Source of the DNA: Dictyostelium discoideum
Taxonomy: Eukaryota
NCBI GenBank assembly: GCA_000004695.1
Contig: CM000154.2
Location: 4,448,001 to 4,512,000, forward strand
Reading direction: 5' to 3'
DNA: 64,000 bases
The translations under genes were made by a program, and so were the position numbers. Shown here piece by piece: positions 9,227-64,000 of the stretch (position 1 is its first letter; each line of letters begins with the position of its first letter). The notes under the pieces were generated by a model. It searched no databases, had not been told where the DNA came from, and was given only the letters and a program-made list of their open reading frames with translations.

Positions 9227-9266
<40 letters not shown>

Positions 9267-15200: not shown

Positions 15201-18200
15201 TTGACTCAAAAGGTTAACCCATTTCTCTTGTTTCATACAACATCTATCAGGTCTTAATTCGATATCACCATCAGAGGATGGCCACCATTGTGAAAAACAA
15301 CCGAATATCGAATCAAAATAAAATGATTTGTATGGTGGTTCTATATATAAAAGTTGACCATTTGGTGTTAATATATTATGAATTTCATTTAATGTTGGTT
15401 TGAGTTTCTTAACGACATGCATAACATTTGACATTACAACGAAATCATAATAGGATGCTTTAAGATCTTGATCTAATAATGGTTTCTCTAAATCTAATAC
15501 ACGATAGATAATATTTAAATTGTTATGATTTGTAAATGATGAGAACTTTTCTTTAATTTCAGCGAAAAATGATGCAGATACATCACTCCATGTAAATTCT
15601 ATATTAATGATTGATGTTGTACTATTATCATTTAATAATTTACAAATCTTTTCTAAAATTAATAAACTAAGACTACCAGTACCACCACCTGCTTCTAATA
15701 TACGAAATACAATTGGTTCATTTAAAATTGGTTTTAGAGTTTCAACTATAATTTCACTTAATAAATTATTCAATGGTTGAACTACTCTTGAATTCTTATA
15801 AAAGTCATCTAAAAAACCACTTTCAAATAATGATTGTGGTGTATCTGTAATAGAATCATCATCTTTTAATGGGAATAACTGTTTTGCCATTATTTTAGTT
15901 GTTCTAATAAATATCTTTTCAATTTTTGGCTTAATATTACTTTGATTATTGTCATGGTTAAGAATATTACTATATCTCTTTAAATTTTCAAAAATGAATT
16001 TGAAAAGATTTTCATTTACTAAACTATTATAATATAATTGTTTAAATTGATTATATTCTAATGTTGTTAATGATTCTAAATTAATACTTGGACATCTATT
16101 ATTAATGTGTTTATAAAATAATGACAATAATAATTCATTTGAAATAAATTGATTATCTTCTTCGTTGACACTAAATTCATCCACACTATATAAATGTTTG
16201 AATTGTTCAGGTTTATTAACTACTGAATCTTTTGATTGAAGATATGGTGTATAAATATCATTTAATGGTGGTTTACAAATTATAGTACTATCAGGATTGG
16301 AGCCAAGTGAAACTAAAGCGCAAACTACATTTGAGATATCAACTAATAATGTACCATTTGGAAGTATGATTTTGACTGATATTGAATATGTTTGATAATT
16401 GGTTCTAGGTTTAATATCTGAAAAAACATATAATTCTTTAATATCATCATTATTGTTGTTTTCATTTAATGATGGAATATTTGAAAAGTAATATTTGAAA
16501 CCTTCAATTCTATCAAGTACGACTGGTTGTGTAACTGCAACTAATGACCCATGTAAACAAGTATCTAAAATTGCTGTATTTAAGAATTTATTCATATTGC
16601 TATTGTTGATTAAATGATTATATTCTTTTTGATTATAAATTTCATTTAATGATACTATTGATAATGAACAATTATTACCGATATAACATTGTTTTACACC
16701 TTGAAATAAACCTTTGTATGTTAAATTTGTTTTAATTCGAATAGTTTCATAAAAATCTTGTTTTGATATGCTTGTAAAATTACATTTATCTTTTAATGAT
16801 TGAATATTAATTAATTTGTTACTGATGATACTGTTATGTTTGGTTAAATTAAAATTACCAAGAGATGATAATATCCATTGATTTGTTTTTTGATCTTTAT
16901 AATGACTTTTAATATTGAATTCATTCTTTGATAGTGGTGCAATTGTAGTTTGTAAACATTGATTATTACCTTCTGTTAATACCAATGGTGATTTAAATTC
17001 TAATGAGCTAATTGTAATATCTTGATTTGGATAAATTGATAATAAATTGTGAACATATCCCATTCCTGGATAATAGAATTTATCACTAACTTGATGACCT
17101 TTTAACCATTGGAATGGAGATTTCTTGATATCGATAAATGTTTGATATGATGGATATGGTGAATCTGTATTATTGCCAAGACTATGAATGGATGGACCTT
17201 CACTTTTAATCTTTTCATGAAATGAAGCAATTTTAAAGTATTCTTTATCATCCCATTGGTAAAGTGGTAAATTATTTAATTTGGTTGTGTTACTAATGTT
17301 GTTGTTGTCATTGATTAATTGTGATTTGAAATTAATATCAAAATTATTATTGACATATAATAAAGAGATTGTCTTTAAGAATTCATTATAATCATTCTTC
17401 TTTTTATTTAATGGTGAATAGATTGTAATGTTTTTACCATTATTAAAGTAACTTGATTGAGTTGATTTCATTTGATTTAAGTAATATTGTAATGTTGGAT
17501 GTGGTGAAACTTCAATGAATGTAATTTCATTACCCATATCATTTGATTCGATATGTTTATAAAGATTTGTTATTGTTTGTGTGAAACGAACTGGTTGGCG
17601 AATATTTTCAAATGCATAATCTGCATTGAATGGCAAGCTTTGATGATTGAATAAATTGGTTGTAACTGTTGAAAATACTGCTATCGATGGTTGTTTTGAT
17701 GAAATATTTAATGAACATACTTCATCTTTAATCATTTGTTGACTTGATGTATGAAATGATGATAATAATCCTAACATTGTACAAAAGATATTATTTGATT
17801 TGAATTCATTGGTAATTTCATTTAATAAGTCTTCTCTACCTGCGATAACGATTGATGTTGGTGAATTGTAACATGCAATTTCTAATGATTCATATTTAGT
17901 TGTAGATTGATAGTTATTAATGAATTCATCTGAACTAATATTAACTGATAACATTCTACCTGTACCTGTGGTTCTATTTTGAGCTACTGATCTATGGTAA
18001 ATCAAGTAGCATAATGTTTGAAAATCAATCATACCTGAACAATATGGTGATGATACTTCACCAAGAGAATGACCAATGATAATATCTGCTGAAACGCCCC
18101 AATGTTTATATAATTCATAGAGTGATACTTGAATGATAACATTTGCAGGTTGTGCTAAAATTGGTTGATGAATTGATATTAAATCTTTATCATCAATTGA

Positions 18201-20561
18201 TCTTAATTTATCTAAAACTGAATAACCATAATATTTGAATAACTCTTTATCGAATCTATTGACAGATTCTCTAAATATTGGTTCATTATCATATAATGAT
18301 AATGCCATTTTATTATATTGTGAACCTTGGCCACATAATACCATTACCGTGATTGGCGATTTCTTTTTTTCAACTGTAATATTTGAAATTAAATTATCAC
18401 TATTTTCTAATTTGATTTGATTATTTTCATCTTGAAATTCATTCCAATCACTTGCGATTATAACTGATTTTTGAATTAATGATGTTGATTTGAATTTAAT
18501 TTGATTGTGTACCAATTCTTTGAAACTTGTTGTGGTTGTTGGCGATGAGTTTGAATTTGAAAGTTTAATTATTGATGATTTATAATTATTTAATGATGTT
18601 GATGAATTGCTTGAGAGTGGTATTAAATATTTCTTTTTTTCATTAACTTTACTATCAATTTCAATTTTGTGATATTCATTTTCATAACGATTATGATGAT
18701 TTTTTTTTAATTCAGATAATATTAAACAAACATTTGAACCTAAATTAAAATTGATAGTTTTAAATTATTAATATAAGTTATTTGGAATCATTAATGATGT
18801 ATATTTACCAGTTATACCGAAATTATTAACTAACATGACAGTTGATTTATTTTCATTAAATTTAATTGGTTCAGTGACAACTTTTAATCCCCATTCTTTA
18901 AAATTAATTAATGGATTTGGTTCTTTGAAATTAATATTTTGAAGAAATAGTTTATTTTTAAACATTAAACAACATTTAATTAATGATGCAACTCCTGAAC
19001 ATGCTGTTATTATTTATTATTATGAAAAATATTTAATGTTAGTAATGATTTATAGCTCTAAAGTTAATTAATTAACTTACCTTCAAGATGTCCAATATTT
19101 GATTTAATTGATCCAACTAAAACTTGTTTATTATTATTTATTGTTGTTGATGGTATTTTAGCACTATTGAAAACTCTTGAAATACCTTCTAATTCTATTG
19201 GATCACCAGTTGGAGTACCAGTACCATGAGTTTCACAATAATCAATATCAGATTCATTGATTTGACCATTGGTTGATTTGATTGCTAATTTGATATTTTC
19301 ACACTGAGATGATTTTGATGGTGAATAAAAGTTTAATTTATCAAAGTTACCATCGATATTTGAACTTGATCCTTTGATTACACAATAGATATTATTTGAA
19401 TCTTTGATTGCATCTTTTAATTTCTTTAATACAACGATACCAACACCTTCTGAACGAACAAAACCATCAGCATCTGATGAAAATGTATGACATTTACCTG
19501 TTGGACTTAACATATCTAATTGGGTGAACGATTTTGAAATGTGTGGGTCTATAAATAAAATTTTTTTGATAATTAATATATAATTCTAAAATTTTCTTTT
19601 TTTTTTTTTCAAATTTATCACATACCTAATATAATATTAACACCACCAACGATTGAAACATTTGATCTATTTGTTTTAATTGAATTATATCCACAATTAA
19701 TTGCATTTGATGAACTTGAGCAAGCTGTATCAATTGTTAAATTTTCACCTCTATTTTTAAAATAACAATTAGTATTTAAGTTTTATTCTTCCAAAAAAGA
19801 TAAATCAAAACATACCTAAAATCAAAGCAATAACCAATTCTATTTGCAATTGAATGAGTTGATGAACCAAAAATATTATTTTGAGTTTCAGATGGTGATC
19901 TTTGAAGATTATAATAATCAATAGTACTATTACCAATAAATGTACTTGTATTGGTACCACGTAAACTAATTGGATCAATACCACTATCTTCTAATGCTTC
20001 CCATACACCTGCATGTTTGTTAATTTTATTTTAAAAAACATTATTAATGGGTAAATAAATAAATAAATAAAATAAATAAATAAATAAATAAATAAAAGAA
20101 AAAAAAAATTTTGGTGGGTTCATTTTTTTTATTATTTATTTTTGGCCAAACCTGATGAAAATTTCCAAAACACTTAATAAATACATACATTTTAATAATA
20201 ATCTTTGTTGTGGGTCTATTGAACTGACATTATCATAAGTTTGATTAATTGCAAAGAAGATTGGATCAAATTGTTTCCATTCATCAAGTGGAAGTAAACC
20301 AGCAAACTTTGAAACGATTTCACCATTTAAATAATAATTATCAGACCATCTTTCAGAAGTTGAAACGATTCCATCCAATCCATTCAATAATTCATTAAAT
20401 AATTGATTTGGTTTTGAAATTGATTCTTTTAAATTACCACTTGGAAATCTTAAACCAATACCAATCACTGCAACATCACCATCATCATTTCTATCAACAT
20501 CATCATCATCATTTCTATCCCTTATTAATTTATTATTATTATTATCTATATTTTGTGTCAT
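12222..20561 (-). CDS. Type I polyketide synthase, copy B (KS-AT-DH-cMT-ER-KR-ACP), lacks the terminal reductase domain; 6 exons, about 2623 aa
   Basis: Exons: 20561..20189, 20008..19816, 19750..19626, 19548..19081, 19003..18809, 18739..12222. Exon lengths (373/193/125/468/195) match copies A and C. The large exon is near-identical to A and C through the ACP, then stops (TAA at 12222-12224) inside the poly-Asn linker (...[25 protein letters not shown]). In A and C this linker connects ACP to the R domain. Sequence 3' of the stop (12221..11650) has no similarity to the R domain or last exon. Confidence 0.85.
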
Positions 20562-21975: not shown

Positions 21976-23730
21976 ATGAATACAATATTTACAATTATTT
22001 TAACAATTACAATATTAGTATTATCATTAATATTAAAAGTAAAATTTTAAAATATTATATATATTATTGACTATTAAAAATTAAACACTTACTTATACTT
22101 TTATTTTTTTAAATAGGATTTATTATTTGAAGGTAGGATTAAAAAAATTAATAAATTAATACCTGGTCCTTCTACAATTCCAGTTTTTGGTAATTTATTA
22201 CAAATTAACGCAAAAGATTTCCCAAAAAGTGTAAATGATTTCTATGAAAGATATGGCAAAGTTTTTAGATTAAGATTGGGTAGTGTTGAAATTGTTGTTC
22301 TAACTGGACCTGAAGTTATTGATGAATGTTTTAATAAAAAACATAGAGAAATTTTCAAAGAAAGATATATTAAATTCTCAAGATTTTTGGGTAAAGATTA
22401 TAATATTTTTTCTTCAAATGGTGATTATCATTATGTTCTAAGAGGAATTCTTACAAGTGAAATTACAACAAGAAAGTTAAATAATGGCAGATTAGAATCA
22501 AATAAATTTATTTTAGAAATGTTTAGTAATCTTTGTAAAGATAATAAAGAAACTCTTGTTAAAAATACACCAAATCAAATTAGGATTCTTGCTGTTAAAT
22601 TAATATTAAATTTCACATTAGGAATTGAAGAGAATGACGAAACCATTCTAATCATTGTAGAAAAGATTAAATGCATTTTTGAAGCTGCTGGATTATTAAT
22701 TTACTCTGATTATTTACCATTTTTATTTCCATTAGATATAAAATCAATGTCAAAGAATGATATTATTTCTAGTTACTTTTTTATAAAAGATTTTATAGGT
22801 ATAAAACTTGATGCTATTAAAATTAAATATGAAAAAGAAAATGAATTGAAAAATGAAACTACTGATGAAACATCTTCAAAACTAAACAATATTCCAATTA
22901 TTGAGAATTATTATAAAAATTATTTAGATGGTTCAATTCATTATGATTCAATCTTGTTTTCAATTTCTGATATTATTTTTGCAGCAGTTGATTCAACATC
23001 CAATGGGTTTAGTCTTTTAATTGGTCAATTAATTAATAAACCTGAAATTCAAGATAAAATATATGAAGAAATCATGAGAAATGATGAAAATAATAATACA
23101 AATAATATATCATTTGCTGATCATACAAAATATCCATATATTATTTCTGTAATGAATGGTAATTATCCATATATATATATATATATTGGTATTAATATGT
23201 GTTGATATATTTTTTCAAAAAATAAATTTTGTATTAATTTGAATAATAGAATCATATAGATATAATTCTTCAGTACCAATAACTGAACCGAATAAAACAA
23301 CAGAAGATGTTGAAGTAAATGGATATAAAATTGCAAAAGGTACAATGATAATTAAAAATCTTCGTGGTACACATTTATCAAAAGAGTTTTGGGGTGAAGA
23401 TGCTTTAGAATTTAAACCAGAAAGATTTAAAAATCAACCTTTAAATCAAAAAGGACTTTTTCATTTTGGTGCAGGTATGTTTTAAACTATTTTGAAATGG
23501 GAATCAAAATTTATCACTAATACAATAATAAATATTATTTTATTTAAACAGGAGCTAGAGCTTGTCCAGGAGGAAGATTTACAGAATCTTTTACTTTTAC
23601 TTTTTTGGTGATAATGTTAAAGAATTTTAAAATAGTCAATCCAACTGATATTCCAATTGATGTTGAAGGAGAAGTTGGTTTGGCAATGCAATGTAAACCT
23701 TTTGATGCCTTATTCATAAAACGTAATTAA
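21976..23730 (+). CDS. Cytochrome P450 monooxygenase, 4 exons
   Basis: Exons approx 21976..22038 (MNTIFTIILTITILVLSLILK membrane anchor), 22117..23158 (IPGPSTIPVFGNLLQI..., ORF 22276..23205), 23249..23474, 23552..23730. The spliced product carries the heme-binding signature FHFGAG/GARACPGGRF across the exon 3-4 junction and ends ...KPFDALFIKRN*. Transcribed divergently from PKS-B; the two ATGs are about 1.4 kb apart. Confidence 0.85.
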
Positions 23731-24162: not shown

Positions 24163-34268
<10,106 letters not shown>

Positions 34269-34536: not shown

Positions 34537-35049
34537 AGATAGATTGCACAGGTATAGTTTAGATTTATTTATTTTTAATTTATATAAAATCAAAATCATA
34601 ATATAACCCCCACTCCCAACATTAATAATTAATTTTATTCTTATTTTAACAATTTTTTTTTTTTTCAGTTTAATATTTTCGTTGGAATTAATGATTGGTT
34701 TTAAAATTTATAAAAAAACAGTTTATAAATTTATTGCAACCACATTTGTACAATAATAATTTTATCTTTTTTTTAATTGGAAAATGGTTATCAAAATTCT
34801 AATAATGAATTTAATTTTTTCTGTTGTTTTAAAACGTTTCAAGTGTGTTTATTTTTGGAAATAATAAAAAGTTTATTAATTAATTAAAAAAAAAAAAAAA
34901 AAATTGGTGGTTGATTTTTTTTTTTTTTAAAAAAAAGATGTTAAATTTTAACCCACTTCCCCCATTTAAAGATCAATTTATTTTAACAAACAAAACTTTT
35001 TTTTTCAATATTTTTTTTTAATTTTATTTTTTATAAAAAATAGTCCCTG

Positions 35050-37527
35050 TTATTAATTAATTGTGATTTGAAATTCATATTTAAATTATTATTGACAAAT
35101 AATAAAGAGATTGTCTTTAAGAATTCATTATAATCATTCTTCTTTTTATTTAATGGTGAATAGATTGTAATGTTTTTACCATTTTTAAAGTAACTTGATT
35201 GAGTTGATTTCATTTGATTTAAGTAATATTGTAATGTTGGATGTGGTGAAACTTCAATGAATGTAATTTCATTACCCATATCATTTGATTCGATATGTAT
35301 ATAAAGATTTGATATTGTTTGTGTGAAACGAACTGGTTGGCGAATATTTTCAAATGTATTATCTGTATTCAATGGCAAGCTTTGATGATTGAATAAATTG
35401 GTTGTAACTGTTGAAAATACTGCTATCGATGGTTGTTTCGATGAAATATTTAATGAACATACTTCATCTTTAATCATTTGTTGACTTGATGTATGAAATG
35501 ATGATAATAATCCTAACATTGTACAAAAGATATTATTTGATTTGAATTCATTGGTAATTTCATTTAACAAGTCTTCTCTACCTGCGATAACGATTGATGT
35601 TGGTGAATTGTAACATGCAATTTCTAATGATTCATATTTAGCTTTAGATTGATATTTATTAATGAATTCATCTGAACTAATATTAAATGATAACATTCTA
35701 CCTGTACCTGTGGTTCTATTTTGAGCTACTGATCTATGATAAGTCAAGTAACATAATGTTTCAAAATCAATCATACCTGAACAATATGGTGATGATATTT
35801 CACCAAGAGAATGACCAATGATAATATCTGCTGAAACACCCCAATGTTTATATAATTCATAGAGTGATACTTGAATGATAACATTTGCAGGTTGTGCTAA
35901 AATTGGTTGATGAATTGATATTAAATCTTTATCACCAATTTATCTTAATTTATCTAAAACTGAATAACCATAATATTTGAATAACTCTTTATCGAATCTA
36001 TTGACAGATTCTCTAAATATTGGTTCATTATCATATAATGATAATGCCATTTTATTATATTGTGAACCTTGGCCACATAATACCATTACTGTGATTGGTG
36101 ATTTCTTTTTTTTCAACTGTAATATTTGAAATTAAATTATCATTATTTTCTAATTTGTCCAATATTTGATTTAATTGATCCAACTAAAACTTGTTTATTA
36201 TTATTTGTTGTTGTTGTTGTTGATGGTATTTTAGTATTATTGAAAACTCTTGATATACCTTCTAATTCTATTGGATCACCAGTTGGAGTACCAGTACCAT
36301 GAGTTTCACAATAATCAATATCAGATTCATTGATTTGACCATTGGTTGATTTGATTGCTAATTTGATATTTTCACACTGAGATGATTTTGATGGTGAATA
36401 AAAGTTTAATTTATCAAAGTTACCATCGATATTTGAACTTGATCCTTTGATTACACAATAGATATTATTTGAATCTTTGATTGCATCTTTTAATTTCTTT
36501 AATACAACGATATCAACACCTTCTGAACGAACAAAACCATCAGCATCCCATCAAAATGTATGAAATTTACCTGTTGGACTTAACATATCTAATTGGGTGG
36601 ATGATTTTGAAAGGTGTGGGTCTATAAATAAAAATTATTTGATAATTAATATATAATTCTAAATTTTTCTTTTTTTTTTCAAATTTATCACATACCTAAT
36701 ATAAAATTAACACCACCAACAATTGAAACATTTGATTTATTTGATTTAATTGAATTATATCCACAATTAATTACATTTGATGAACTTGAACAAGCTGTAT
36801 CAATTGTTAAATTTTCACCTCTATTTTTAAAATAACAATAAAGTTTTATTGTTCCAAAAAAGATAAATCAAAACATACCTAAAATCAAAGCAATAACCAA
36901 TTCTATTTGAGATGGAATTAGTTGATGAACCAAAAATATTATTTTGAGTTTCAAATGGTGATCTTTGAAGATTAGAATAATCAATAGTACTATTACCAAT
37001 AAATGTACTTGTATTGGTACCACGTAAACTAATTGGATCAATACCACTATCTTCTAATGCTTCCCATACACCTGCATGTTTTTTGATTTTATTTTAAAAA
37101 ACATTATAAATAAATAAATTAAATAAATAAATAAATAAATAAAAGAATTGAAAAAAAAAAATTTTGGTGGGTTCATTTTTTTTATTATTTATTTTTTTGG
37201 CCAAAAAACACTTAAAAAATACATACCTTTAATAATAATATTTGTTGTGGGTCTATTGAACTGACATTATCATAAGTTGGATTAATTGCAAAGAAGATTG
37301 GATCAAATTGTTTCCATTCATCAAGTGGAAGTAAACCAGCAAACTTTGAAACGATTTCACCATTTAAATAATAATTATCAGACCATCTTTCAGAATTTGT
37401 AACGATTCCATCCAATCCATTCAATAATTCATTTAATAATTGATTTGGTTTGGAGATCGATTCTTTTAAATTACCACTTGGAAATCTTAAACCAATACCA
37501 ATCACTGCAACATCACCATCATCATTT
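35050..37527 (-). pseudogene. Decayed PKS fragment (KS exons 1-4 plus part of the AT region) with an internal deletion, in-frame stops and a truncated 5' end
   Basis: ORFs 37212..37505 ([13 protein letters not shown]... KS N-terminus, truncated upstream of DDGDVAV) and 35031..35774 (AT-domain segment). Exon 2/3/4 homologs lie at about 37075-36165. Exon 4 carries a stop (...PTGKFHTF*WDAD, about 36545). At about 36164 the exon-4 homolog is fused directly to sequence from the start of the AT region; exon 5 and the 5' part of exon 6 are deleted. The AT part has a stop (DKLR*IGDKDL, about 35940). The 3' end is joined abruptly at about 35050 to the conserved PKS upstream block (aaaaatagtccct|gttatt...). 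Confidence 0.8.
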
Positions 37528-38666: not shown

Positions 38667-38766
38667 NNNNNNNNNNNNNNNNNNNNNNNNNNNNNNNNNN
38701 NNNNNNNNNNNNNNNNNNNNNNNNNNNNNNNNNNNNNNNNNNNNNNNNNNNNNNNNNNNNNNNNNN
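38667..38766. other. Assembly gap (100 N)
   Basis: Run of exactly 100 N. Confidence 0.99.
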
Positions 38767-39858: not shown

Positions 39859-41174
39859 ATGGAAGGAGTATTATCATCATTATTAGCATCATCATTAATT
39901 GTTGGATTTCCATCATTAATATTTGTATGTTCAATATTAATTTATTATTATTTATGTGTTATGAAAAAGAAAATTTCATCAAAAGATTCATTACCACCAG
40001 TGATTGGGGTATATATAATGAGATGTATTTATTCAATAACTCAATATTGGGAGATGATAATACCACAAATTAAATTATACAGAATTTCCAATGATTATAT
40101 TGTTTTTCAATGTTTATCTGTGGTTTTCACATTAAAAGTAATGGATTATTTAAAAGATGGACCTAAAACCATTAGAGAATTATCACAATTAACAAAATCA
40201 AGTGAAAAGAATTTATTTAGAGTAATGCGTGCTCTAACTCAAGAACATATTTTTAACTATAATCAAAGTAATCAAACATTTTCATTAAATTCATGTTCAA
40301 AACTATTAACTTCACCACCACCACCATCATCATCTCCATTTGAACAAAATGGTATATTATCAACAAATGATGAAGAATTAGGATGTATATTTTCAATGTT
40401 AAGTTATCCAACATTTATTGATGCATGGAGATCATTAAAAGAATGCATTGAAAGTGGTGTTAGTGGTTTTCAAGCAAAGCATGGTATGACATTCTTTCAA
40501 TATATTGATGAAAAAGATACTTATATTAAAAAGATATTTGATTCTGCAATGAGACAAAGAATTATGCAACTAAAATACATACACAAATAATCAATGGTTA
40601 TGATTTTTCAAAGTATAAAAAAGTTTGTGATATTGGTGGAGGTATCGGATTCCTTGGCTTTGAAATTGTGAATCACAATGCCAATACGTGTGTATGTGTA
40701 TTAGAGTTGGAGGAGACTGTTAGAAATGGGTTAGAACAAAGTAAAGTAGATGAAAAGAAGCAACGTATAATTGAGGAACAAAGATTGGTTTTTAAAACTG
40801 GTAATATGTTTATACCAAGATCAATCCCATCTGCAAATCTTTACATTATGATGCAAGTTATTCATGATTGGAATAACAATGATGCAATTAAAATTCTATC
40901 ATCTGTTGCATCAACTATGAGAATGGAGAGAAACCACACTGGTCAATCTCCAAAATTATTAATCATTGATTCAATCCTTGATGATAATATCAATAATGAC
41001 ACCTACAAACGTTCATGTATACCTGATATCATAATGATGGCAATTGTAGGTGGTGAAGAAAGAACACTTTCACAATGGGGTCATATAATTAAAGAAAGTG
41101 GTTTACAAGTTTTAACAATTAAAAAATTTAATCGTCCACCATTTTTATCATTAATTGAATTAACAATTCAATAA
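39859..41174 (+). CDS. Class I SAM-dependent O-methyltransferase (plant/COMT-like OMT family); reading frame broken by a 1-bp deletion in an A run near 40585-40588
   Basis: The N-terminal frame (ORF 39859..40590) has the dimerisation-domain-like segment QIKLYRISNDYIVFQCLSVVFTLKVMDYLKDGPKTIRELSQL and ...KKIFDSAM. The C-terminal frame (through 41174) has IINGYDFSKYKKVCDIGGGIGFLGF (SAM motif I), FKTGNMF, ANLYIMMQVIHDWNNNDAIKIL. The two frames meet at cacaaa|taatcaatggt. Adding one A restores ...KYIHKIINGYDF.... The true start is uncertain: the hydrophobic MEGVLSSLLASSLIVGF... at 39859 may be real, or the start may be an internal Met near 40019/40049. Confidence 0.75.
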
Positions 41175-41218: not shown

Positions 41219-42816
41219 TTATTTTTCAAAATGTTTATCTAAATTTGTTAAAGATTTATCTAAAATTTCAAAACCTTCTTTTAATTCTTTTTCATTAATT
41301 GTTAATGGTGGATTTGTAAAGAAGGATGACCAACGGCAAAGTGTGTATAAACCATTTTCAACGAAATCTGAGGATAGTTTAGTCATGGCTGGGTGTGGTG
41401 GACCATTGTATTCGATGAATGGGTCACCATTTGAATTCTTTTGAAGTTCAACGATACCGAATAAACCTAATGAACGGTAACCTTTGACTGTTGGATGACG
41501 TTGTTTCAATTGTTCCATATGTTTTTTCATTACTGGTTCTAAAGTTTTAACATTATCCAATACACGATTCTTTAAGAAATATTGTAATGCGGCATATGCT
41601 GATGCTAATGTGACTGGATGACTATTGTAAGTTGAGCCAATGCCAATTGGGTTGACTTTAAAGTGGTCAGCAATACGATCACGACAGCCAACAGCACCCA
41701 ATGGGAGGTAGGCACCATTGATACCTTTTGCCATTGTGACGATATCTGGAATTACCTCTTCTTGGCTATTCATAAAACCAAACATTTCACCAGTTCTACC
41801 GAATCCATTCATAACTTCATCGCAAACCATGAGAATGCCAGTTTCGTCGCAAATCTTACGAATACCTTCGAGATAGCCTTTTGGTGGCTTGAGAATACCA
41901 TTGGTGCCGGTTACAGGCTCAATGAAAATTGCAGCGATATTTTTGGCACCCTCATAGGATATGGTTTCACGAAGATATTTAAGTGAGATTTCTGTGATTT
42001 GCTCTTCAGTTTCACCCCATTTAAAACTGTATGGATATGGATCCATAAAGTGGACAACACCACTTGCACCAGGCTCGCTATTCCAACGACGTGGATCGCC
42101 TGTTAATGTCATTGCACCCAATGTTGCGCCATGGTAGGAACGATAACGTGCTAAAATCTTATGACGACCAGTGAAAAGACGTGCCATTCTCATTGCGGTT
42201 TCATTTGACTCTGCACCACCACTTGTGTAGTAGAAATGGTTGATATCACCTGGGAATAAATCTGCTAATAACATTGATAACTTTGCTTTAATTGGTGTTA
42301 CAATTGAACATGGATAAGCATAAGCAGCTGATCTCAATTGTTCTTCAATTGCTTTAATAACTTCCTCTGGTACTGTATGTCCAAGATTTGAACACATTGC
42401 TTGTGAATTGAAATCAATATATTTCTTACCATCTGTATCATAAAAATAAACACCTTCACCTTTTTCCATAATTAATGCTTTATTTGCTGCTGCTTCTGTT
42501 GGATTCCATGAAAATAATGTATTATCTTTAATTGTTTGAATAATTTCTTTTTTATTAAATTTTTTTTCTGAAATTTTTAAATGTTTTTTATAAATTTCTA
42601 ATTAAAAATAAAAATAAAAATAAAAATAAAAATAAAATAATTAGAATAAATTATATAAATATTTGGATTATTTTTTTTTTATTTTATTTTTTTTTGATTT
42701 TATAATTTACCATCATAATTAACTTTTGATGAAAAACTACATTGAGTTGATTTAATTGAATTATTAATTAAAACTGATGTGGTTTTAATATTTTTAATAA
42801 CACCTCTTGTGATCAT
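41219..42816 (-). CDS. Class-III (omega) PLP-dependent aminotransferase, AGXT2 / GABA-T / beta-alanine-pyruvate transaminase-like, 2 exons, with a probable N-terminal mitochondrial presequence
   Basis: Exon 1 about 42816..42711 (MITRGVIKNIKTTSVLINNSIKSTQCSFSSKVNYD, donor GTAAAT). The intron holds an (AAAAT)n repeat. Exon 2 about 42597..41219 (ORF 41219..42469 extended upstream: ...IYKKHLKISEKKF...MEKGEGVYFYDTDGKKYIDF...). Class-III aminotransferase signatures: YTSGGAESNETAMRMAR, IAAIFIEPVTGTNGI, MVCDEVMNGFGRTGEMFG, VTMAKGINGAYLPLGAV (PLP lysine in MAKG). The stop is 45 bp from the OMT stop; the two genes are convergent. Confidence 0.85.
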
Positions 42817-43235: not shown

Positions 43236-43335
43236 NNNNNNNNNNNNNNNNNNNNNNNNNNNNNNNNNNNNNNNNNNNNNNNNNNNNNNNNNNNNNNNNN
43301 NNNNNNNNNNNNNNNNNNNNNNNNNNNNNNNNNNN
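43236..43335. other. Assembly gap (100 N)
   Basis: Run of exactly 100 N in the 3' flank of the alg7-like gene. Confidence 0.99.
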
Positions 43336-43379: not shown

Positions 43380-44842
43380 TTTAAAAGAAAAATGGAGCCA
43401 AAACATATCTAATACCAAAACCAACACATGAACATAAACCTTGGAATATTAAAAGATAAACACAGAGTTGTCTTTCAGTTAATGGACCAGTAATCATTAA
43501 AAGTAAATTTATAATTGTGAGATTAGTTGGAATTGCTTCCATTTTACCAGTTTCTGGATTGAATTTTGGAACTCTATGTCTTGGACATGGAATTATACCA
43601 AATAACTGTGGTACTGAATAAAGAAAATTTAAAATCTTTTTATTTAAATAAAAAAAAAAAAATTAGTATATTATTTATTATTTATTATTTATTATAAATA
43701 TATTTTAAAAAAAACTTACTTGAGGAATAAAGAATAATAATAAAGTTTTACTAAAATGACAAAGGATTGCAACTACAGCAAAACACATACCAGAGAAATA
43801 AGTATATGTATCACCGACAAATACACGAGAAGGATACCAATTGTAAAAGAGTAAAGAGATCGTTGTGAAAAGGAATGGTATCATTAAAATTAGTGAAAAT
43901 AAATGTGGTGAAACTGATGAGAGTGCCGAGGAGGAGAAAGAGGAGGAAGAGGGTACTGACGATGCAATTGTTAATTCTATTAAATTATGAATAATGATTG
44001 ATGTAGCTATTACAACTGATTGACCAACTTCCAAACCATTAATACCTGCTAAAATATTGATACTGTTGGTACAAAAGATTGCCAACATTAATAAATAGAT
44101 ACGATAAAAGATACCCAAATCAAATACAACACCCAACCATTCCCTTAATGGTACTGGGAAATTAATATCTGGTACAACTACGGTTGTACCACCTGCATAT
44201 GCCACTAATAATGGTAAACTTGCAAACATTGGTAATATCAATTTATATCTCCATCTTAAATTTAAAACGTCATCTCCAAATCCTAATAAAATCATAAAAC
44301 AAATTGATGTCAATGCTGCATTATATTCACTTAATTGAATTGTCTCTGGGAATGAAAACCATTGAAATGTTTGAAATAATATGACACATACTAAATAAAC
44401 TACTGCAACACAAATACCTAATGATTCTGGTCTATTTAAAAATAAAAAAATAAAAAAAAAAAAAATAAAAAAAATAAAAATAAAAAAAATTGGGGGGGTG
44501 GGAGAGAGTGGGTGAGTGAGAGGTTTGTAATTTAATTGAGGAAAAAAAAAAAAAAAAAAAAAAAAGAAAACCCTTATAATAATTATAATATATTTACATT
44601 TTCTTACCGGAGAATTTAGGGTCACCTTTTTTATTTAAATCCATACCAGTTAAATTTGCTTGTGAAGTTAAATCTGCAACTGATGGTATTAATTTATAAG
44701 TTAACAAACCTGCACCAAATGAAAAGAAACCACTTTGTACTATGATCCATTGAAGTGATACATTTGGTAAATAGATTAATAATAGAATTGGTGGTAAACA
44801 ACAAATACCAATAAATCCTAATAATGATTTATCAAATATCAT
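43380..44842 (-). CDS. alg7: UDP-GlcNAc:dolichyl-phosphate GlcNAc-1-phosphate transferase (GPT / ALG7 / DPAGT1 family), 3 exons
   Basis: Exons approx 44842..44608 ([15 protein letters not shown]...KGDPKFS), 44426..43720 ([12 protein letters not shown]...[12 protein letters not shown], donor GTAAGT), 43605..43380 ([26 protein letters not shown]...*). Family motifs: [55 protein letters not shown]. Confidence 0.85.
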
Positions 44843-59515: not shown

Positions 59516-61235
59516 ATGAAAGAAAATAGTTACAACACAAGTATTCATAGTAATAAAGTTAAAAATTATGACGATGCTGATAGTAGTGGTGATGTTGCAG
59601 TGGTTGGTATTGGTTTAAGATTTCCAAGTGGTAATTTAAAAGAATCGATTTCAAAACCAAATCAATTATTTAATGAATTATTGAATGGATTGGATGGAAT
59701 AGTTTCAACTTCTGAAAGATGGTCTGATAATTATTGTTTAAATGGTGAAATCGTTTCAAAGTTTGCTGGTTTACTTCCACTTGATGAATGGAAACAATTT
59801 GATCCAATCTTCTTTGCAATTAATCCAAGCAATGATAATGTCGGTTCAATAGATCCACAACAAAGATTATTATTAAAATGTATGTATACTATCATTGTCG
59901 AATTGAGTCAAAAAAATTTGTGTTTTACTCCACCAAAAAATTTTTATTTTTTTTTATTATTTTTATTTTTTTTTATTTTTTTATTTTTTTGTGCAATACT
60001 TCTGGTCAAAAATAATTTTTTATTTTTTTTTTTTTATCAACAGTTGACAATTATCTTTAATTAAAATGTTTTTTTTAAAAAAAATCAATCCATTAAAAAT
60101 TTAAAACATGGATATTTTTTTAAAAAATTTAGATATTTATATTTATTTATTAATAATGTTTTTTTAAATAAAATCAACAAACAGGTGTATGGGAAGCATT
60201 AGAAGATAGTGGTATTGATCCAATTAGTTTACGTGGTACCAATACAAGTACATTTATTGGTAGTAGTACTATTGATTATAATAATCTTCAAAAATCACCA
60301 TTTGAAACTCAAAATAATATTTTTGGTTCCACAACTAATTCCGTTGCAAATAGAATAGGTTATTGCTTTGATTTTAGGTATGTTTTCTATTTATTTTTCA
60401 TTACTATAACCATAATTTAAAGAATTATATTAATAATTAATTAATTATCATTTCTTTTTTTTAAAAATAGAGGTGAAAATTTAACAATTGATACAGCTTG
60501 TTCAAGTTCATCAAATGCAATTAATTGTGGATATAATTCAATTAAATCAAATAAATCAAATGTTTCAATCGTTGGTGGTGTTAATTTTATATTAGGTATG
60601 TGATAAATTAAAAAAAAAAAAAATAAAAAAAAAAAGAATTATATAAATTAAAAATCAAATAATTTTTATTTATTTATATTATTATTTATTTATAGACCCA
60701 CACATTTCAAAATCGTTCACCCAATTAGATATGTTAAGTCCAACAGGTAAATGTCATACATTTTCATCGGATGCTGATGGTTATGTTCGTTCAGAAGGTG
60801 TTGGTATCGTTGTATTAAAGAGATTAAAAGATGCAATCAAAGATTCAAATAATATCTATTGTGTAATCAAAGGATCAAGTTCAAATATCGATGGTAACTT
60901 TGATAAATTAAACTTTTATTCACCATCAAAATCATCTCAGTGCGAAAATATCAAATTAGCAATCAAATCAACCAATGGTCAAATCAATGAATCTGATATT
61001 GATTATTGTGAAACTCATGGTACTGGTACTCCAACTGGTGATCCAATAGAATTAGAAGGCATATCAAGAGTTTTCAATAATAAAGCATCAACTACAAAAA
61101 CTAATAATAATAAACAAGTTTTAGTTGGATCAGTTAAATCAAATATTGGACATACTGAAGGTAAGTTAATTAATTAAATATAAATAACCAAAGTCAATCA
61201 TTAAATACTAACATTAAATATTGTTTATAATAATA

Positions 61236-61302
<67 letters not shown>

Positions 61303-64000
61303 GCATGTTCAGGAGTTGCATCATTAATTAAATGTTGTATAATGTTTAAAAATAAACTATTTCTTCAAAATATTAATTTCAAAGAACCAAATCCATTAAT
61401 TAATTTTAAAGAATGGGGATTAAAAGTTGTCACTGAACCAATTAAATTTAATGAAAATAAATCAACTGTCATGTTAATTAATAATTTTGGTATAACTGGT
61501 AAATATATACATCATTATATTGTTAAATTTTATTATTATAAAATAAATAATTAATATTTTAATAATGTCATTTATATAGGTTCAAATGTTTGTTTAATAT
61601 TATCTGAATTTTGTAGTGATCAATTTAGAAAAAGTAATGATTATCACAAAATGGAAATTGATAATAAATTTAATGAAAAAAAGAAATATTTAATACCACT
61701 CTCAAGTAATTCATCAACATCATTAAATAATTATAAATCATCAATAATTAAACATTCAAATTTAACACCATTCTCATCACCCACAAGCTTTGAAGGATTT
61801 ATATGTAATCAAATTAAATTCAAATCAACATCATTAATTCAAAAATCAGTTATAATCGCAAGTGATTGGAATGAATTTCAAGATGAAAGCAATCATATTA
61901 AATTAGAAAATAGTGATAATTTAATTTCAAATATTACAGTTGAAAAAAAGAAATCACCACTCACAGTAATGGTATTATGTGGTCAAGGTTCACAATATAA
62001 TAAAATGGCATTATCATTATATGATAATGTACCAATATTTAGAGAATCTGTCAATAGATTCGATAAAGAGTTATTCAAATATTATGGTTATTCAGTTTTA
62101 GATAAATTAAGATCAATTGATGATAAAGATTTAATATCAATTCATCAACCAATTTTAGCACAACCTGCAAATGTTATCATTCAAGTATCACTCTATGAAT
62201 TATATAAACATTGGGGCGTTTCAGCAGATATTATCATTGGTCATTCTCTTGGTGAAATATCATCAGCATATTGTTCAGGTATGATTGATTTTCAAACATT
62301 ATGCTACTTGACTTACCATAGATCAGTAGCTCAAAATAGAACCATAGGTACAGGTAGAATGTTATCAGTTAATATTAGTTCAGATGAATTCATTAATAAA
62401 TATCAATCTACAACTAAATATAAATCATTAGAAATTGCATGTTACAATTCACCAACATCAATCGTTATCGCAGGTAAAGAAGACTTATTAAATGAAATTA
62501 CCAATGAATTCAAATCAAATGATATCTTTTGTTCAATGTTAGGATTATTATCATCATTTCATACATCAAGTCAACAAATGATTAAAGATGAAGTATGTTC
62601 ATTAAATATTTCATCGAAACAACCATCGATAGCAGTATTTTCAACAGTTACAACCAATTTATTCAATCATCAAACTTCACCGTTCAATGCAGATTATGCA
62701 TTTAATAATATTCGCCAACCAGTTCGTTTCACACAAACAATTACAAATCTTTACAAACATATCGAATCAAATGATATGGGTAATGAAATTACATTCATTG
62801 AAGTTTCACCACATCCAACATTACAATATTACTTAAATCAAATGAAATCAACTCAATCAAGTTACTTTAATAATGGTAAAAACATTACAATCTATTCACC
62901 ATTAAATAAAAAGAAGAATGATTATAATGAATTCTTAAAGACAATCTCTTTATTATATGTCAATAATAATTTTGATATTAATTTCAAATCACAATTAATT
63001 AATAACAGTAATAACCATACAAACCAATCAAATAATTTACCACTTTACCAATGGGATGATAAAGAATACTTTAAACTAAACCCATCACTTGAAAAGATTA
63101 AAAATGAAGGTCCATCCATTCACAGTCTTGGTAATAATACAGATTCACCATATCCATCATATCAAACATTTATCGATATCAAGAAATCACCATTCCAATG
63201 GTTAAAAGGTCATCAAGTTAGTGATAAATTCTATTATCCAGGAATGGGATATGTTCACAATTTATTATCAATTTATCCAAATCAAGATATTACAATTAGC
63301 TCATTAGAATTTAAATCACCCTTGGTATTAACAGAAGGTAATAGACAATGTTTACAAACTACCATTGCACCATTATCAAAGAATGAATTCAATATTAAAA
63401 GTCATTATAAAGATCAAAAAACAAATCAATGGATATTATCATCTCTTGGTAATTTTAGTTTATTCAAACATAATATTGAAAATAATGAATCAATTAATAT
63501 TCAATCATTAAAAGATAAATGTAATTTTACAACTATATCAAAACAAGATTTTTATGAAACTATTAGAATTAAAACAAATTTAACATACAAAGGTTTATTT
63601 CAAGGTGTTAAAGAATGTTATATCGGTAATAATTGTTCATTAGTAAAAGTATCATTAAATGAAATTTATAATCAAAAAGAATATAATCATTTAATCAACA
63701 ATAGTAATATGAATACTTTTTTTAATACAGCAATTTTAGATACTTGCTTACATGGAGTATTGGTTGCAGTTACACAACCAATCGTACTTGATAGAATTGA
63801 AGCTTTCAAATTTTACTCTTCAAATATTACATCATCGAATATTAGTAATAACGATACAATTAAAGAATTATATGTTTACTCTGAAACTAGAGCAAGAACT
63901 AATTCTCAAACATATTCAGGATCAATTAAAATCATACTTCCAAATGGTACATTATTAGTTGATATTGGAAATGTAGTTTGCACTATTGTTGGCTCCAATC
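59516..64000 (+). CDS. Type I polyketide synthase paralog E (diverged copy, same exon structure), 5' partial; runs out of the window within the DH/linker region
   Basis: Exons: 59516..59879, 60185..60377, 60471..60595, 60696..61160, 61304..61498, 61580..>64000. Exon lengths 193/125/465/195 and phases are identical to copies A-C. The N-terminus differs ([39 protein letters not shown]). Protein identity to A-C is roughly 85-90% by eye (e.g. [10 protein letters not shown] vs [10 protein letters not shown]). An (AAT)n microsatellite sits in intron 4 (about 61225-61300). Confidence 0.85.

Follow-up and report, generated by a model that had tools for sequence, protein, structure and literature searches.

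A class-III aminotransferase near reductase-domain polyketide synthases of Dictyostelium discoideum is very likely a housekeeping, presumably mitochondrial enzyme

The aminotransferase Q1ZXC3 of Dictyostelium discoideum is encoded at positions 41219-42816 of a 64,000-nucleotide stretch of genomic DNA (contig CM000154.2, referred to here as the window) that also contains polyketide synthases (PKSs) ending in reductase (R) domains. We find that it is very likely a housekeeping enzyme unrelated to these PKSs. The fuller description that we favour, and hold to be probable when taken as a whole, is that of a vertically inherited, mitochondrial omega-amino-acid transaminase of primary metabolism with beta-alanine/beta-aminoisobutyrate as the most probable substrates. 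That the gene lies close to PKS genes is most likely a coincidence brought about by recent gene duplication and a gap in the assembly.

Results

The aminotransferase gene proposed in a first-pass annotation of the window was confirmed with its exact coordinates, on the minus strand and in two exons. Exon 1 (42711..42816, minus strand, 106 nt) begins with the ATG at 42816 and supplies codons 1-35 plus one nucleotide, encoding a presequence-like N-terminus, while exon 2 (41219..42597, minus strand) encodes the remainder of a eukaryote-specific N-terminal extension together with the whole class-III core and closes with the stop codon at 41221-41219. In the splice model the two are separated by an intron of 113 nt with 5% GC (42598..42710, minus strand, GTAAAT...TTAATTAG), and the reading frame is kept across the exon junction (G|AA, Glu36). 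The spliced product of 494 amino acids shows 100% identity over 100% of its length to XP_001134511.1 / Q1ZXC3, annotated as 'aminotransferase class-III [Dictyostelium discoideum AX4]', and the model is valid because the spliced and the annotated protein are the same. The GC fraction of the gene (0.346) is the highest in the window, that of the PKSs being 0.235, and this codon and GC bias lends weak support to a housekeeping character. Our literature searches found no paper mentioning Q1ZXC3 and, for Dictyostelium combined with 'aminotransferase class-III', nothing specific to the gene.

Q1ZXC3 is a class-III aminotransferase, that is, a fold-type I PLP enzyme: residues 74-484 match Pfam PF00202 with E=7e-76 and 255.9 bits (cutoff 30.5), covering positions 8-402 of the 403 in the profile. 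Lys326 in the motif TMAKGI (codon 41726..41728, minus strand), invariant in 24/24 aligned family members, is presumably the PLP Schiff-base lysine, a catalytic role that we assign from the conserved position in class-III aminotransferases. Asp295 in the motif CDEVM (codon 41819..41821, minus strand) would, by analogy with the family, be the partner of the PLP pyridine nitrogen (N1). Both motifs align with the same motifs in the solved structure 6jix and are invariant in the 24 family members. Further upstream lies the subfamily signature RYRSYHG ... TGDPRRW (residues 186-207; 42083..42148, minus strand), whose invariant Arg186, Arg188, Arg205 and Arg206 suggest that it may serve in acid-group binding. 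The pattern [AS]RYRSYHG[GA], which the scan selected as one of the two best conserved peptides, retrieved 596 confirmed relatives.

Within NCBIfam, the best model for Q1ZXC3 by a wide margin is PRK06062, a model tuned to bacteria, with 429.8 bits (under its cutoff of 472) compared to 292.5 for the next model. The score with the GABA-T model TIGR00700 was 194.5 against a cutoff of 506.65, which places the protein outside this group, and the curated acetylornithine and putrescine aminotransferase models likewise score it far under their cutoffs. A corresponding picture emerges for solved structures, where GABA-T structures match at 156-181 bits versus 333 bits for 6jix. The first-pass annotation had seen the closest kinship in AGXT2, beta-alanine-pyruvate and GABA transaminases. 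Of this, the assignment as a class-III omega-transaminase stands, and the substrates likely overlap with those of AGXT2/GABA-T; the nearest relatives, however, belong to the PRK06062/taurine:2-oxoglutarate aminotransferase (6jix) group and to bacterial enzymes from pyrimidine clusters.

In order to follow the gene across the social amoebae we compared seven sequenced dictyostelid species, D. discoideum and six others. Single orthologs with 71-85% identity are found in D. purpureum (85%), P. violaceum (81%), T. lacteum (80%), A. subglobosum (76%), H. album (75%) and C. fasciculata (71%), and no closer paralogs appear among the best 120 matches. In a neighbour-joining (NJ) tree the Dictyostelia are recovered with 100% bootstrap support and an internal branching that follows the accepted species groups, and the eukaryote-like sequences are monophyletic with 98% bootstrap. 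The clade bearing a presequence comprises Dictyostelia, other amoebozoans, choanoflagellates, Gefionella and Rhodelphis; proteins of Myxococcota and Planctomycetota from pyrimidine-catabolism clusters are 50-52% identical to Q1ZXC3. Judged by tree and copy number, the aminotransferase is ancient, eukaryote-wide, vertically inherited and single-copy. It is also better conserved than the adjacent O-methyltransferase (OMT), with 85% versus 67-73% identity to the D. purpureum counterparts.

The N-terminus encoded by exon 1 (MITRGVIKNIKTTSVLINNSIKSTQCSF) had been described as basic, hydroxylated and acid-free, and it is so: the first 30 residues carry a net charge of +4, no Asp or Glu and 10 Ser/Thr, and the first acidic residue of Q1ZXC3 is found at position 35. 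The same character is shared by 7/7 dictyostelid orthologs (net charge of the first 30 residues +3 to +5, 0-1 acidic residues), and Arg-rich equivalents of the extension occur in Gefionella, choanoflagellates and Rhodelphis. The bacterial homologs (439 aa), in contrast, have an acidic start without the extension, and a conserved Trp accordingly sits at position 60-78 in the extended orthologs versus 18-26 in bacteria. At GRFY|SS and TRSY|SN, respectively, the T. lacteum and D. purpureum N-termini fit the R-3 processing motif, whereas the putative D. discoideum cleavage site CSF|SS has no Arg at -2/-3. The helical moment of the D. discoideum presequence is unremarkable, the maximum hydrophobic moment of 0.5-0.7 overlaps that of controls, and a literature search on the Dictyostelium mitochondrial proteome found no proteome dataset. 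Taken together, the N-terminal features point to a mitochondrial location of Q1ZXC3. The N-termini of the window PKSs carry net charges of -2 to -6, from which a cytosolic location of these synthases appears likely.

The arrangement of the window at first sight invites a different interpretation, namely that Q1ZXC3 works as omega-transaminase together with the R-domain PKSs, turning a reductively released polyketide aldehyde into a primary amine, following the logic of CpkC-TR/CpkG. The pairing of a TR domain with a class-III omega-transaminase is proven in actinobacteria, although R domains can also release alcohols without a transaminase (PMC5365063). The 12-residue R-domain motif reported earlier indeed occurs twice on the minus strand, at 25574 and 2273, each time inside an NAD_binding_4 domain (E 1e-37 to 1e-40) at the C-terminus of one of two HR-PKSs, and the presence of the OMT gene and a P450 fragment near the aminotransferase makes the region resemble a biosynthetic cluster. 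The first-pass statement that the aminotransferase lies next to R-domain PKSs is accurate in that such PKSs are present in the window, but the nearest intact one, PKS C (24870..34268, minus strand, with its N-terminus at 34268 and its terminal R domain marked by the motif at 25574), lies about 7.0 kb from the 3' end of the aminotransferase gene, and the nearest R motif lies 15.6 kb away.

The interval between the two genes contains three elements. The first is the OMT gene (39859..41174, plus strand; Dimerisation and Methyltransf_2 domains), convergent with the aminotransferase gene and with 44 bp between the stop codons; the second is a scaffold gap of 100 N (38667..38766), which divides the OMT/aminotransferase block from the PKS array; and the third is a decayed PKS remnant (35031..37505, minus strand) with an acyltransferase fragment (35031-35999) and a KS N-terminal fragment (37212-37505), 91% identical to PKS D. 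The 5' part of PKS D itself (59516..64000, plus strand, KS domains), the fourth copy of the PKS family, lies on the far side of a housekeeping block. PKS A, B, C and D are mutually 87-92% identical in amino-acid sequence and are therefore recent duplicates, which bracket unrelated housekeeping genes: an alg7-like Glycos_transf_4 (GT4) gene, a PABP-like gene and a kinase. The main exon of the GT4 gene lies at 43705..44625 on the minus strand, and one source gives its product as UDP-GlcNAc:dolichyl-phosphate GlcNAc-1-P transferase. An independent D. discoideum assembly is colinear with window positions 52982-38767 and then diverges exactly at the gap. At this site it contains no PKS; in its place is a gene for a 364-aa non-PKS protein that is absent from the window and is the ortholog of the gene following the OMT in D. 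purpureum.

The neighbourhoods of the orthologs show a similar independence. Within 10 kb, no PKS was found in D. purpureum, H. album, A. subglobosum and C. fasciculata, and an R-domain PKS is found near 0/6 of the other dictyostelid orthologs. D. purpureum shares the convergent aminotransferase-OMT pair (OMT 67-73% identical), and the C. fasciculata ortholog has three ECH_2 (3-hydroxyisobutyryl-CoA-hydrolase-type) genes on its flanks. In P. violaceum and T. lacteum, a Steely-type hybrid PKS with a type III PKS end and no R domain directly adjoins the ortholog, the order on gap-free contigs being GT4 - aminotransferase - hybrid PKS, with the GT4 81-86% identical. These hybrids share no more than 24-27% identity with the window PKSs, and the Steely-type hybrid PKS releases its product by cyclisation, not as an aldehyde. 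We considered and rejected PKS D as the counterpart of the T. lacteum hybrid (87-92% identity to PKS A-C, ~27% to the hybrids), as well as the T. lacteum PKS as a Steely1 ortholog, since it reaches only 117 bits to 2h84.

Set against the presence of two R-domain PKSs in the window, the proven actinobacterial pairing and the immediate PKS neighbour of the P. violaceum and T. lacteum orthologs, these observations make a polyketide-aldehyde to amine route highly improbable. The enzyme is kept one-to-one at 71-85% identity in species without a PKS nearby, and where a PKS does adjoin it, this is a non-orthologous hybrid with release by cyclisation. The R-PKS copies arose by recent duplication, in contrast to the ancient, eukaryote-wide aminotransferase, and the physical connection between them spans a scaffold gap and is contradicted by the independent assembly. 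The presequence-like N-terminus would also separate the enzyme from the acidic, likely cytosolic PKSs, close bacterial relatives reside in primary catabolic operons, and alcohol release from R domains would dispense with a transaminase. Searching the literature for Dictyostelium PKSs with a reductase domain and an aminotransferase, or for reductive release, we found nothing specific. A one-to-one ortholog, PKS-independent synteny and mitochondrial targeting, which the first-pass annotation had itself named as speaking against the polyketide route, are essentially what we see, the targeting being putative, while its alternative of a housekeeping mitochondrial transaminase agrees with the single dictyostelid orthologs, their R-PKS-independent neighbourhoods and the shared presequence-like N-terminus, as far as sequence can indicate.

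The PKS adjacency in two other species, together with the copies 7-17 kb away in the window, nevertheless exceeds chance expectation, which we would roughly put at a few percent for one species, and is not fully explained. One could envisage a conserved link to a Steely-type hybrid PKS/OMT pathway in Group 3/4 dictyostelids, perhaps through the supply of precursors, in line with the gene order seen on the gap-free contigs of P. violaceum and T. lacteum and with the convergent aminotransferase-OMT pair kept in D. discoideum and D. purpureum. We regard such a link as very improbable. A single ancestral synteny block is the simplest account because the housekeeping GT4 gene (81-86%) belongs to it, and convergent genes have no shared promoter. 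Moreover, neither D. purpureum nor the independent D. discoideum assembly retains the PKS at this position, and Group 1/2 species keep the enzyme without a PKS. We also know of no evident chemical role for a transaminase in the resorcinol/phloroglucinol products of Steely-type enzymes.

The gene context of bacterial relatives provides information on the substrate of what we take to be a housekeeping enzyme. We scanned the neighbourhoods of 82 bacterial loci with 43-52% identical homologs using unbiased neighbour clustering; several of the top neighbour ORF clusters proved to be antisense artefacts in high-GC genomes and were set aside. An aldehyde dehydrogenase is directly adjacent on the same strand in 34/82 loci, and in the two representative loci scanned it is a CoA-acylating methylmalonate-semialdehyde dehydrogenase (MMSDH; TIGR01722, 511-542 bits, above cutoff). 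As MMSDH is the commonest immediate neighbour, a 3-carbon semialdehyde product is indicated. At least two genes of reductive pyrimidine catabolism (counting dihydropyrimidinase TIGR02033, CN_hydrolase, PreT/PreA and NCS1 permease) lie within 8 kb in 28/82 loci, while in 48/82 this interval is devoid of pyrimidine genes, an amino-acid permease taking their place in 13; the second individually inspected bacterial locus had no clear gene context. In D. discoideum the dihydropyrimidinase has been characterised (PMC5832032) and the beta-alanine synthase protein detected (PMC3546656), and the organism therefore possesses the upstream pathway. Resting on context in bacterial proteins that are only ~50% identical, the assignment of beta-alanine/beta-aminoisobutyrate as substrate has roughly even chances of being right.

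Two other substrate classes have to be weighed against this assignment. A mitochondrial taurine (or hypotaurine):2-oxoglutarate aminotransferase is suggested by the best PDB match, BkToa (6jix; E 2.5e-98, 333 bits), the sole biochemically characterised relative and as such a point against beta-alanine, and by many metagenomic relatives labelled 'taurine--2-oxoglutarate transaminase' by JGI. We judge it unlikely. No sequence in the tree is more distant than BkToa (40% identity, long branch), compared to 50-52% for the pyrimidine-cluster proteins of Myxococcota and Planctomycetota; we assume that the JGI labels most likely stem from automatic annotation transfer and not from assays; and among the top neighbour clusters of the 82 loci there were no taurine-specific genes such as those for sulfoacetaldehyde acetyltransferase or a taurine transporter.

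Class-III transaminases are notoriously promiscuous, and this leaves room for a housekeeping mitochondrial enzyme with a different small amine or amino acid as substrate, be it GABA, an ornithine-like compound, a diamine, or a range of compounds as in an AGXT2-like scavenger. The loci devoid of pyrimidine genes and those with an amino-acid permease are compatible with such an activity, as is the example of AGXT2, which is promiscuous and mitochondrial (PMC9309667). With scores far under the cutoffs of the GABA-T, acetylornithine and putrescine models, and with MMSDH as a neighbour that implies a 3-carbon semialdehyde product, we give this alternative a small chance.

Discussion

In the scheme that we consider best supported, the enzyme is nuclear-encoded; the N-terminal presequence of about 30 residues would direct import into mitochondria and then be removed, and the mature enzyme would act as a homodimer with PLP on Lys326, by analogy with the solved relative. 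Its amino donor would be a small omega-amino acid; beta-alanine and beta-aminoisobutyrate, with which the reductive breakdown of uracil and thymine ends, are the most probable candidates, singly or together. The amino group would pass to a 2-oxo acid; we infer 2-oxoglutarate, as in the solved relative, or pyruvate as amino acceptor. The resulting malonate or methylmalonate semialdehyde would then be oxidised by a CoA-acylating methylmalonate-semialdehyde dehydrogenase. That the enzyme, or a cytosolic fraction of it, additionally aminates aldehydes from Dictyostelium R-domain PKSs strikes us as very doubtful; if it did, this would constitute the first polyketide-amine (alkaloid-type) pathway in Amoebozoa, and the placement of PKSs in D. 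discoideum, P. violaceum and T. lacteum would reflect that link.

The locus represents a cautionary case for cluster mining in social amoebae, as an apparent combination of R-domain PKS, OMT, P450 and transaminase dissolves once orthologs, paralog age and the assembly gap are taken into account, which is why an amine product of the R-domain PKSs should not be predicted from the transaminase. A modest by-product of the analysis is an uncharacterised eukaryote-wide clade of presequence-bearing class-III transaminases, whose bacterial relatives are found where pyrimidine-degradation clusters encode the beta-alanine aminotransferase. Its members may reasonably be proposed for the last step of pyrimidine catabolism in Dictyostelia, other amoebozoans, choanoflagellates, Gefionella and Rhodelphis.

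Amongst solved structures, BkToa (6jix) is the best match, aligning with residues 78-491 of Q1ZXC3. BkToa and the PRK06062 group have the RYRSYHG and GDxRRW signatures, the catalytic Lys and the Asp in common with Q1ZXC3, although the RYRSYHG and TGDxRRW motifs, invariant in the aligned eukaryotic and bacterial members, read CYRSYHG and SGDWRRF in BkToa. The differences are considerable: the ~40% identity to BkToa was obtained on a trimmed alignment, Q1ZXC3 carries an N-terminal extension of ~50 residues and scores under the PRK06062 cutoff, and its closer bacterial relatives are found outside taurine contexts.

The likeness to PydD, which serves as beta-alanine aminotransferase in bacterial clusters for reductive pyrimidine degradation (PMC7332683), concerns gene position. 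Bacterial homologs with 48-52% identity occupy the PydD place in clusters, next to dihydropyrimidinase, a beta-ureidopropionase-like CN_hydrolase, a PreT/PreA-like dihydropyrimidine dehydrogenase, a uracil-type permease and MMSDH, whereas in Dictyostelium the gene lies apart from the pyd genes. Eukaryotic genes are not organised in operons.

Human AGXT2, ABAT and plant PYD4 are mitochondrial class-III transaminases for beta-alanine, beta-aminoisobutyrate or GABA (PMC9309667). They belong to the same Pfam family as Q1ZXC3 and share its predicted compartment, and their substrates and role in the last step of pyrimidine catabolism probably overlap with those of Q1ZXC3. As judged by the GABA-T model and by GABA-T structures, Q1ZXC3 nevertheless belongs to another subfamily; the structure of the plant GABA-T POP2, for instance, matches at 181 bits versus 333 for 6jix.

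CpkG, finally, resembles Q1ZXC3 in being a class-III PLP omega-transaminase, and in the window the latter likewise lies near R/TR-domain PKSs. The two differ in that conserved co-clustering with a TR-PKS is missing across the orthologs of Q1ZXC3, which bears a mitochondrial-type presequence and has its relatives in primary catabolism.

Gene structure, family assignment and conservation of the aminotransferase

The window has approximately 22% GC and short, AT-rich introns, as is usual for Dictyostelium. The class-III aminotransferase gene lies on the minus strand, where exon 1 (106 nt, ATG at 42816) is followed by an intron of 113 nt (42710-42598, GTAAAT...TTAATTAG, 5% GC) and by exon 2, which runs from 42597 to the stop codon at 41219. 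The spliced 494-residue protein is identical (100%, full length) to the D. discoideum AX4 protein 'aminotransferase class-III' (XP_001134511.1, UniProt Q1ZXC3), which validates our gene model as well as the coordinates 41219-42816 of the first-pass annotation. Its description as a class-III omega-transaminase is equally borne out by a match to Pfam Aminotran_3 (E 7e-76) and by an alignment of 24 family members (mean column identity 59%), in which the Schiff-base Lys326, Asp295 and the signatures RYRSYHG and TGDxRRW are invariant. Arg186, 188, 205, 206, 303, 410 and 457 are conserved in at least 90% of the aligned sequences, a set that would be consistent with binding of acidic substrates rather than hydrophobic aldehydes. 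The further suggestion that AGXT2 and GABA transaminases are the closest relatives is only approximately right: the top curated model is NCBIfam PRK06062 (429.8 bits, under its cutoff of 472), and in the same curated-model search the protein stays far under all cutoffs for GABA-T, acetylornithine and putrescine aminotransferases. Amongst solved structures, the taurine:2-oxoglutarate aminotransferase BkToa of Bifidobacterium kashiwanohense (6jix) ranks first with 333 bits, compared to 159-207 bits for amine transaminases, plant GABA-T POP2 and omega-amino-acid:pyruvate transaminases.

A single high-identity ortholog occurs in each sequenced dictyostelid (D. purpureum 85%, P. violaceum 81%, T. 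lacteum 80%, A. subglobosum 76%, H. album 75%, C. fasciculata 71%), with no closer paralogs among the best 120 matches, and N-terminally extended homologs are also found in Synstelium, Mastigella, Gefionella, three choanoflagellates, Rhodelphis and Trimastix. A neighbour-joining tree built on 442 columns with 200 bootstraps unites all eukaryote-like sequences in a single clade (98%) and recovers Dictyostelia as monophyletic (100%), with internal branching that matches the accepted species groups (Group 4 with P. violaceum and T. lacteum 98%, H. album with A. subglobosum 100%). Such a pattern marks an ancient enzyme that has been inherited vertically under strong purifying selection, whereas tailoring enzymes usually show a patchy distribution and evolve fast.

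Dictyostelid orthologs share a presequence-like N-terminus

Bacterial family members are approximately 439 residues long and start about 17 residues ahead of a conserved (F/Y)(S/T)W motif; over the first 30 residues their net charge is -1 to -2, and the first acidic residue comes at position 4-7. All seven dictyostelid orthologs have some 45-60 extra N-terminal residues, the first 30 of which have a net charge of +3 to +5, none or one acidic residue (first D/E at 30-45) and 6-13 Ser/Thr. A basic, hydroxylated and nearly acid-free composition is common to all seven, and Arg-rich counterparts occur in Gefionella, choanoflagellates and Rhodelphis. The dictyostelid extension closes with a conserved aromatic-Ser-Ser/Thr/Asn followed by NY(N/D)EIYxKH. 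T. lacteum (GRFY|SS) and D. purpureum (TRSY|SN) match the established R-3 MPP/Icp55 pattern; the D. discoideum N-terminus has no Arg at -2/-3. With N-termini of net charge -2 to -6 in the four HR-PKS copies of the window (PKS A-D), composition supports a matrix-targeted transaminase and probably cytosolic polyketide synthases (PKSs).

The extension varies elsewhere in the family. Choanoflagellate homologs and one metagenomic homolog (P0023, P0028, P0029, P0032) carry a conserved VNxLYxPG and then a Cys-rich patch (such as CTRSPCICANP, CTHNPCVCSP, CQRPPCSCDG; alignment columns 30-80) in a eukaryote-specific linker between presequence and catalytic core, at the position occupied by NY(N/D)EIYxKH in dictyostelids. 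The extension of the homolog from the anaerobic protist Trimastix marina (P0044) is acidic (net charge -2) and not presequence-like, and this protein may differ in localisation.

Polyketide synthases in the window and at the orthologous loci

The first-pass annotation had set a housekeeping mitochondrial function against a biosynthetic one, in which the enzyme would convert aldehydes released by neighbouring R-domain PKSs to amines. Such PKSs do exist in the window: the R-domain motif occurs twice on the minus strand, at 25574 and 2273, inside the NAD_binding_4 domains that end two AT-DH-MT-ER-KR-ACP-R synthases. PKS A spans approximately 1566-10868, PKS C 24870-34268, and PKS D starts at 59516 (59516-64000 in the window). 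The long ORF of PKS B (approximately 12222-20561) stops right after the ACP with no R-domain motif behind it, so either its release domain may have been lost or this copy may be a pseudogene. On the plus strand, a cytochrome P450 ORF fragment (22276-23205, profile positions 41-327 of 462) separates PKS B from PKS C; as a candidate for tailoring the products of these PKSs it is more plausible than the aminotransferase. A decayed remnant at 35031-37505 is 91% identical to the PKS family. Past a 100-N gap (38667-38766) follow a convergent O-methyltransferase gene (OMT), the aminotransferase, an alg7-like GT4, a PABP-like and an unknown gene, a kinase, and B-box and FNIP proteins. PKS D shares 87-92% protein identity with A, B and C; the R-type PKSs are thus very recent duplicates on both sides of a run of unrelated housekeeping genes, and the four copies and the remnant point to tandem or segmental duplication in the very recent past.

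In an independent D. discoideum assembly at chromosome level (L003), colinearity with the window extends from 52982 to 38767 and breaks off exactly at the N run. Over the following 7.5 kb of L003, tblastn (E<1e-3) detects no PKS sequence; this stretch carries a two-exon gene for a 364-residue protein, which is absent from the window. Its positional ortholog in D. purpureum (59-63% identity) is the gene that comes after the OMT (L003 14045-21598 compared with L001 15913-17147). Aminotransferase, OMT and the 364-residue gene therefore represent the conserved Group 4 order, and the apparent PKS distance of 3.7-7 kb in the window hinges on an unsized scaffold gap or a strain-specific rearrangement. 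In L003 just 12 bp stand in place of the other N run (43236-43335). The OMT begins (39859-39965) with MEGVLSSLLASSLIVGFPSLIFVCSILIYYYLCVM, a strongly hydrophobic segment resembling a membrane anchor, which is unusual in a normally soluble family.

The first-pass annotation had proposed synteny independent of PKS genes as part of a test against the biosynthetic role, and for this test we fetched 10 kb to either side of each ortholog. In D. purpureum, H. album, A. subglobosum and C. fasciculata no PKS lies within this range, and tblastn with the window PKSs returned nothing at these four loci. In P. violaceum (L004 12215-20768, minus) and T. lacteum (L005 12434-20633, minus), on gap-free contigs, a large PKS is directly convergent with the ortholog; it is only 24-27% identical to the window PKSs and ends in a chalcone-synthase-type domain (Chal_sti_synt_N/C), which makes it a Steely-type (type I/type III) hybrid, whose product leaves by cyclisation rather than in aldehyde form. 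This type III domain is distant from Steely1 (117 bits to 2h84) and nearer to 4b0n. The other flank of the aminotransferase is a housekeeping Glycos_transf_4 gene (alg7-type, 81-86% identical) in D. discoideum, P. violaceum and T. lacteum. The simplest reading is a single ancestral synteny block in the Group 3/4 branch, and we tentatively attribute the PKS adjacency there to this block lying in PKS-rich genomes.

The 90%-identity protein cluster of the aminotransferase also lists alg7-type proteins of about 400 residues from several Dictyostelium assemblies. Unrelated in sequence, they look like a database clustering or listing artefact; their locus tags, consecutive with those of the aminotransferase genes, incidentally confirm the adjacency in D. 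firmibasis and D. citrinum. Three ECH_2 genes of the 3-hydroxyisobutyryl-CoA-hydrolase type flank the C. fasciculata ortholog (L002 8281-17608); one is unusually long (1129 residues), and the locus may be a small catabolic gene neighbourhood.

Pairing of a terminal reductase (TR) domain with an omega-transaminase is a real biosynthetic logic, as in CpkC-TR/CpkG, where the TR domain by itself over-reduces the aldehyde to the alcohol (PMC5365063); an R domain hence needs no transaminase. The conserved co-clustering that defines that system is not seen for the Dictyostelium aminotransferase, as no R-domain PKS lies within 10 kb of its orthologs in the six other species, and we consider a partnership with the PKSs very unlikely. 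Single orthologs, PKS-independent synteny and presequence-like N-termini instead make the assignment as a housekeeping, mitochondrial-type transaminase well supported. This is an ordinary finding, with the lesson that cluster calls spanning assembly gaps demand caution.

Bacterial gene context and candidate substrate

In Myxococcota, a 52% identical homolog lies in an operon with genes for a CN_hydrolase, dihydropyrimidinase, NCS1 uracil-type permease, aldehyde dehydrogenase, and PreT-like and PreA-like proteins. A scan with the family alignment as query, using one genome per bacterial species, added 80 further loci (43-52% identity; 82 in total). An aldehyde dehydrogenase lies within 8 kb in 46 of the 82, directly adjoining on the same strand in 34. 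One or more pyrimidine-catabolism genes occur in 34 loci, two or more in 28 and three or more in 19, with enrichment in the closest relatives (15/28 versus 13/54), and an unbiased clustering of every neighbouring ORF arrived at these families again. Pfam/NCBIfam scans of representative loci confirmed a CoA-acylating methylmalonate-semialdehyde dehydrogenase (MMSDH; TIGR01722, 511-542 bits, cutoff 448.5), dihydropyrimidinase (TIGR02033, 618 bits) and the Fe-S domain of dihydropyrimidine dehydrogenase.

Beta-alanine or beta-aminoisobutyrate is our leading substrate hypothesis. Taurine or hypotaurine is a live alternative given the structural match to BkToa, although the neighbour-ORF clustering of the 82 loci returned no taurine-specific genes. 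With beta-alanine or beta-aminoisobutyrate as substrate, the precursor would be imported and its presequence removed; the enzyme would then alternate between the PLP-Lys326 aldimine and PMP, passing the amino group to 2-oxoglutarate (as in BkToa) or pyruvate, and MMSDH would convert the resulting semialdehyde to acetyl- or propionyl-CoA. The methylmalonate/malonate semialdehyde node is common to valine, thymine and beta-alanine catabolism, and the three ECH_2 genes of C. fasciculata fit this node. As a by-product, an uncharacterised clade of eukaryotic transaminases gains a candidate assignment.

Bacterial Pyd clusters encode PydD, a beta-alanine aminotransferase, together with MSDH (PMC7332683), and the bacterial relatives of our enzyme occupy this PydD and MSDH position. 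Upstream enzymes in D. discoideum include a dihydropyrimidinase (PMC5832032) and a beta-alanine synthase protein (PMC3546656). In animals and plants the equivalent step is performed by mitochondrial AGXT2/ABAT and PYD4 (PMC9309667); the Dictyostelium enzyme seems to be their counterpart, either non-orthologous or only distantly related.
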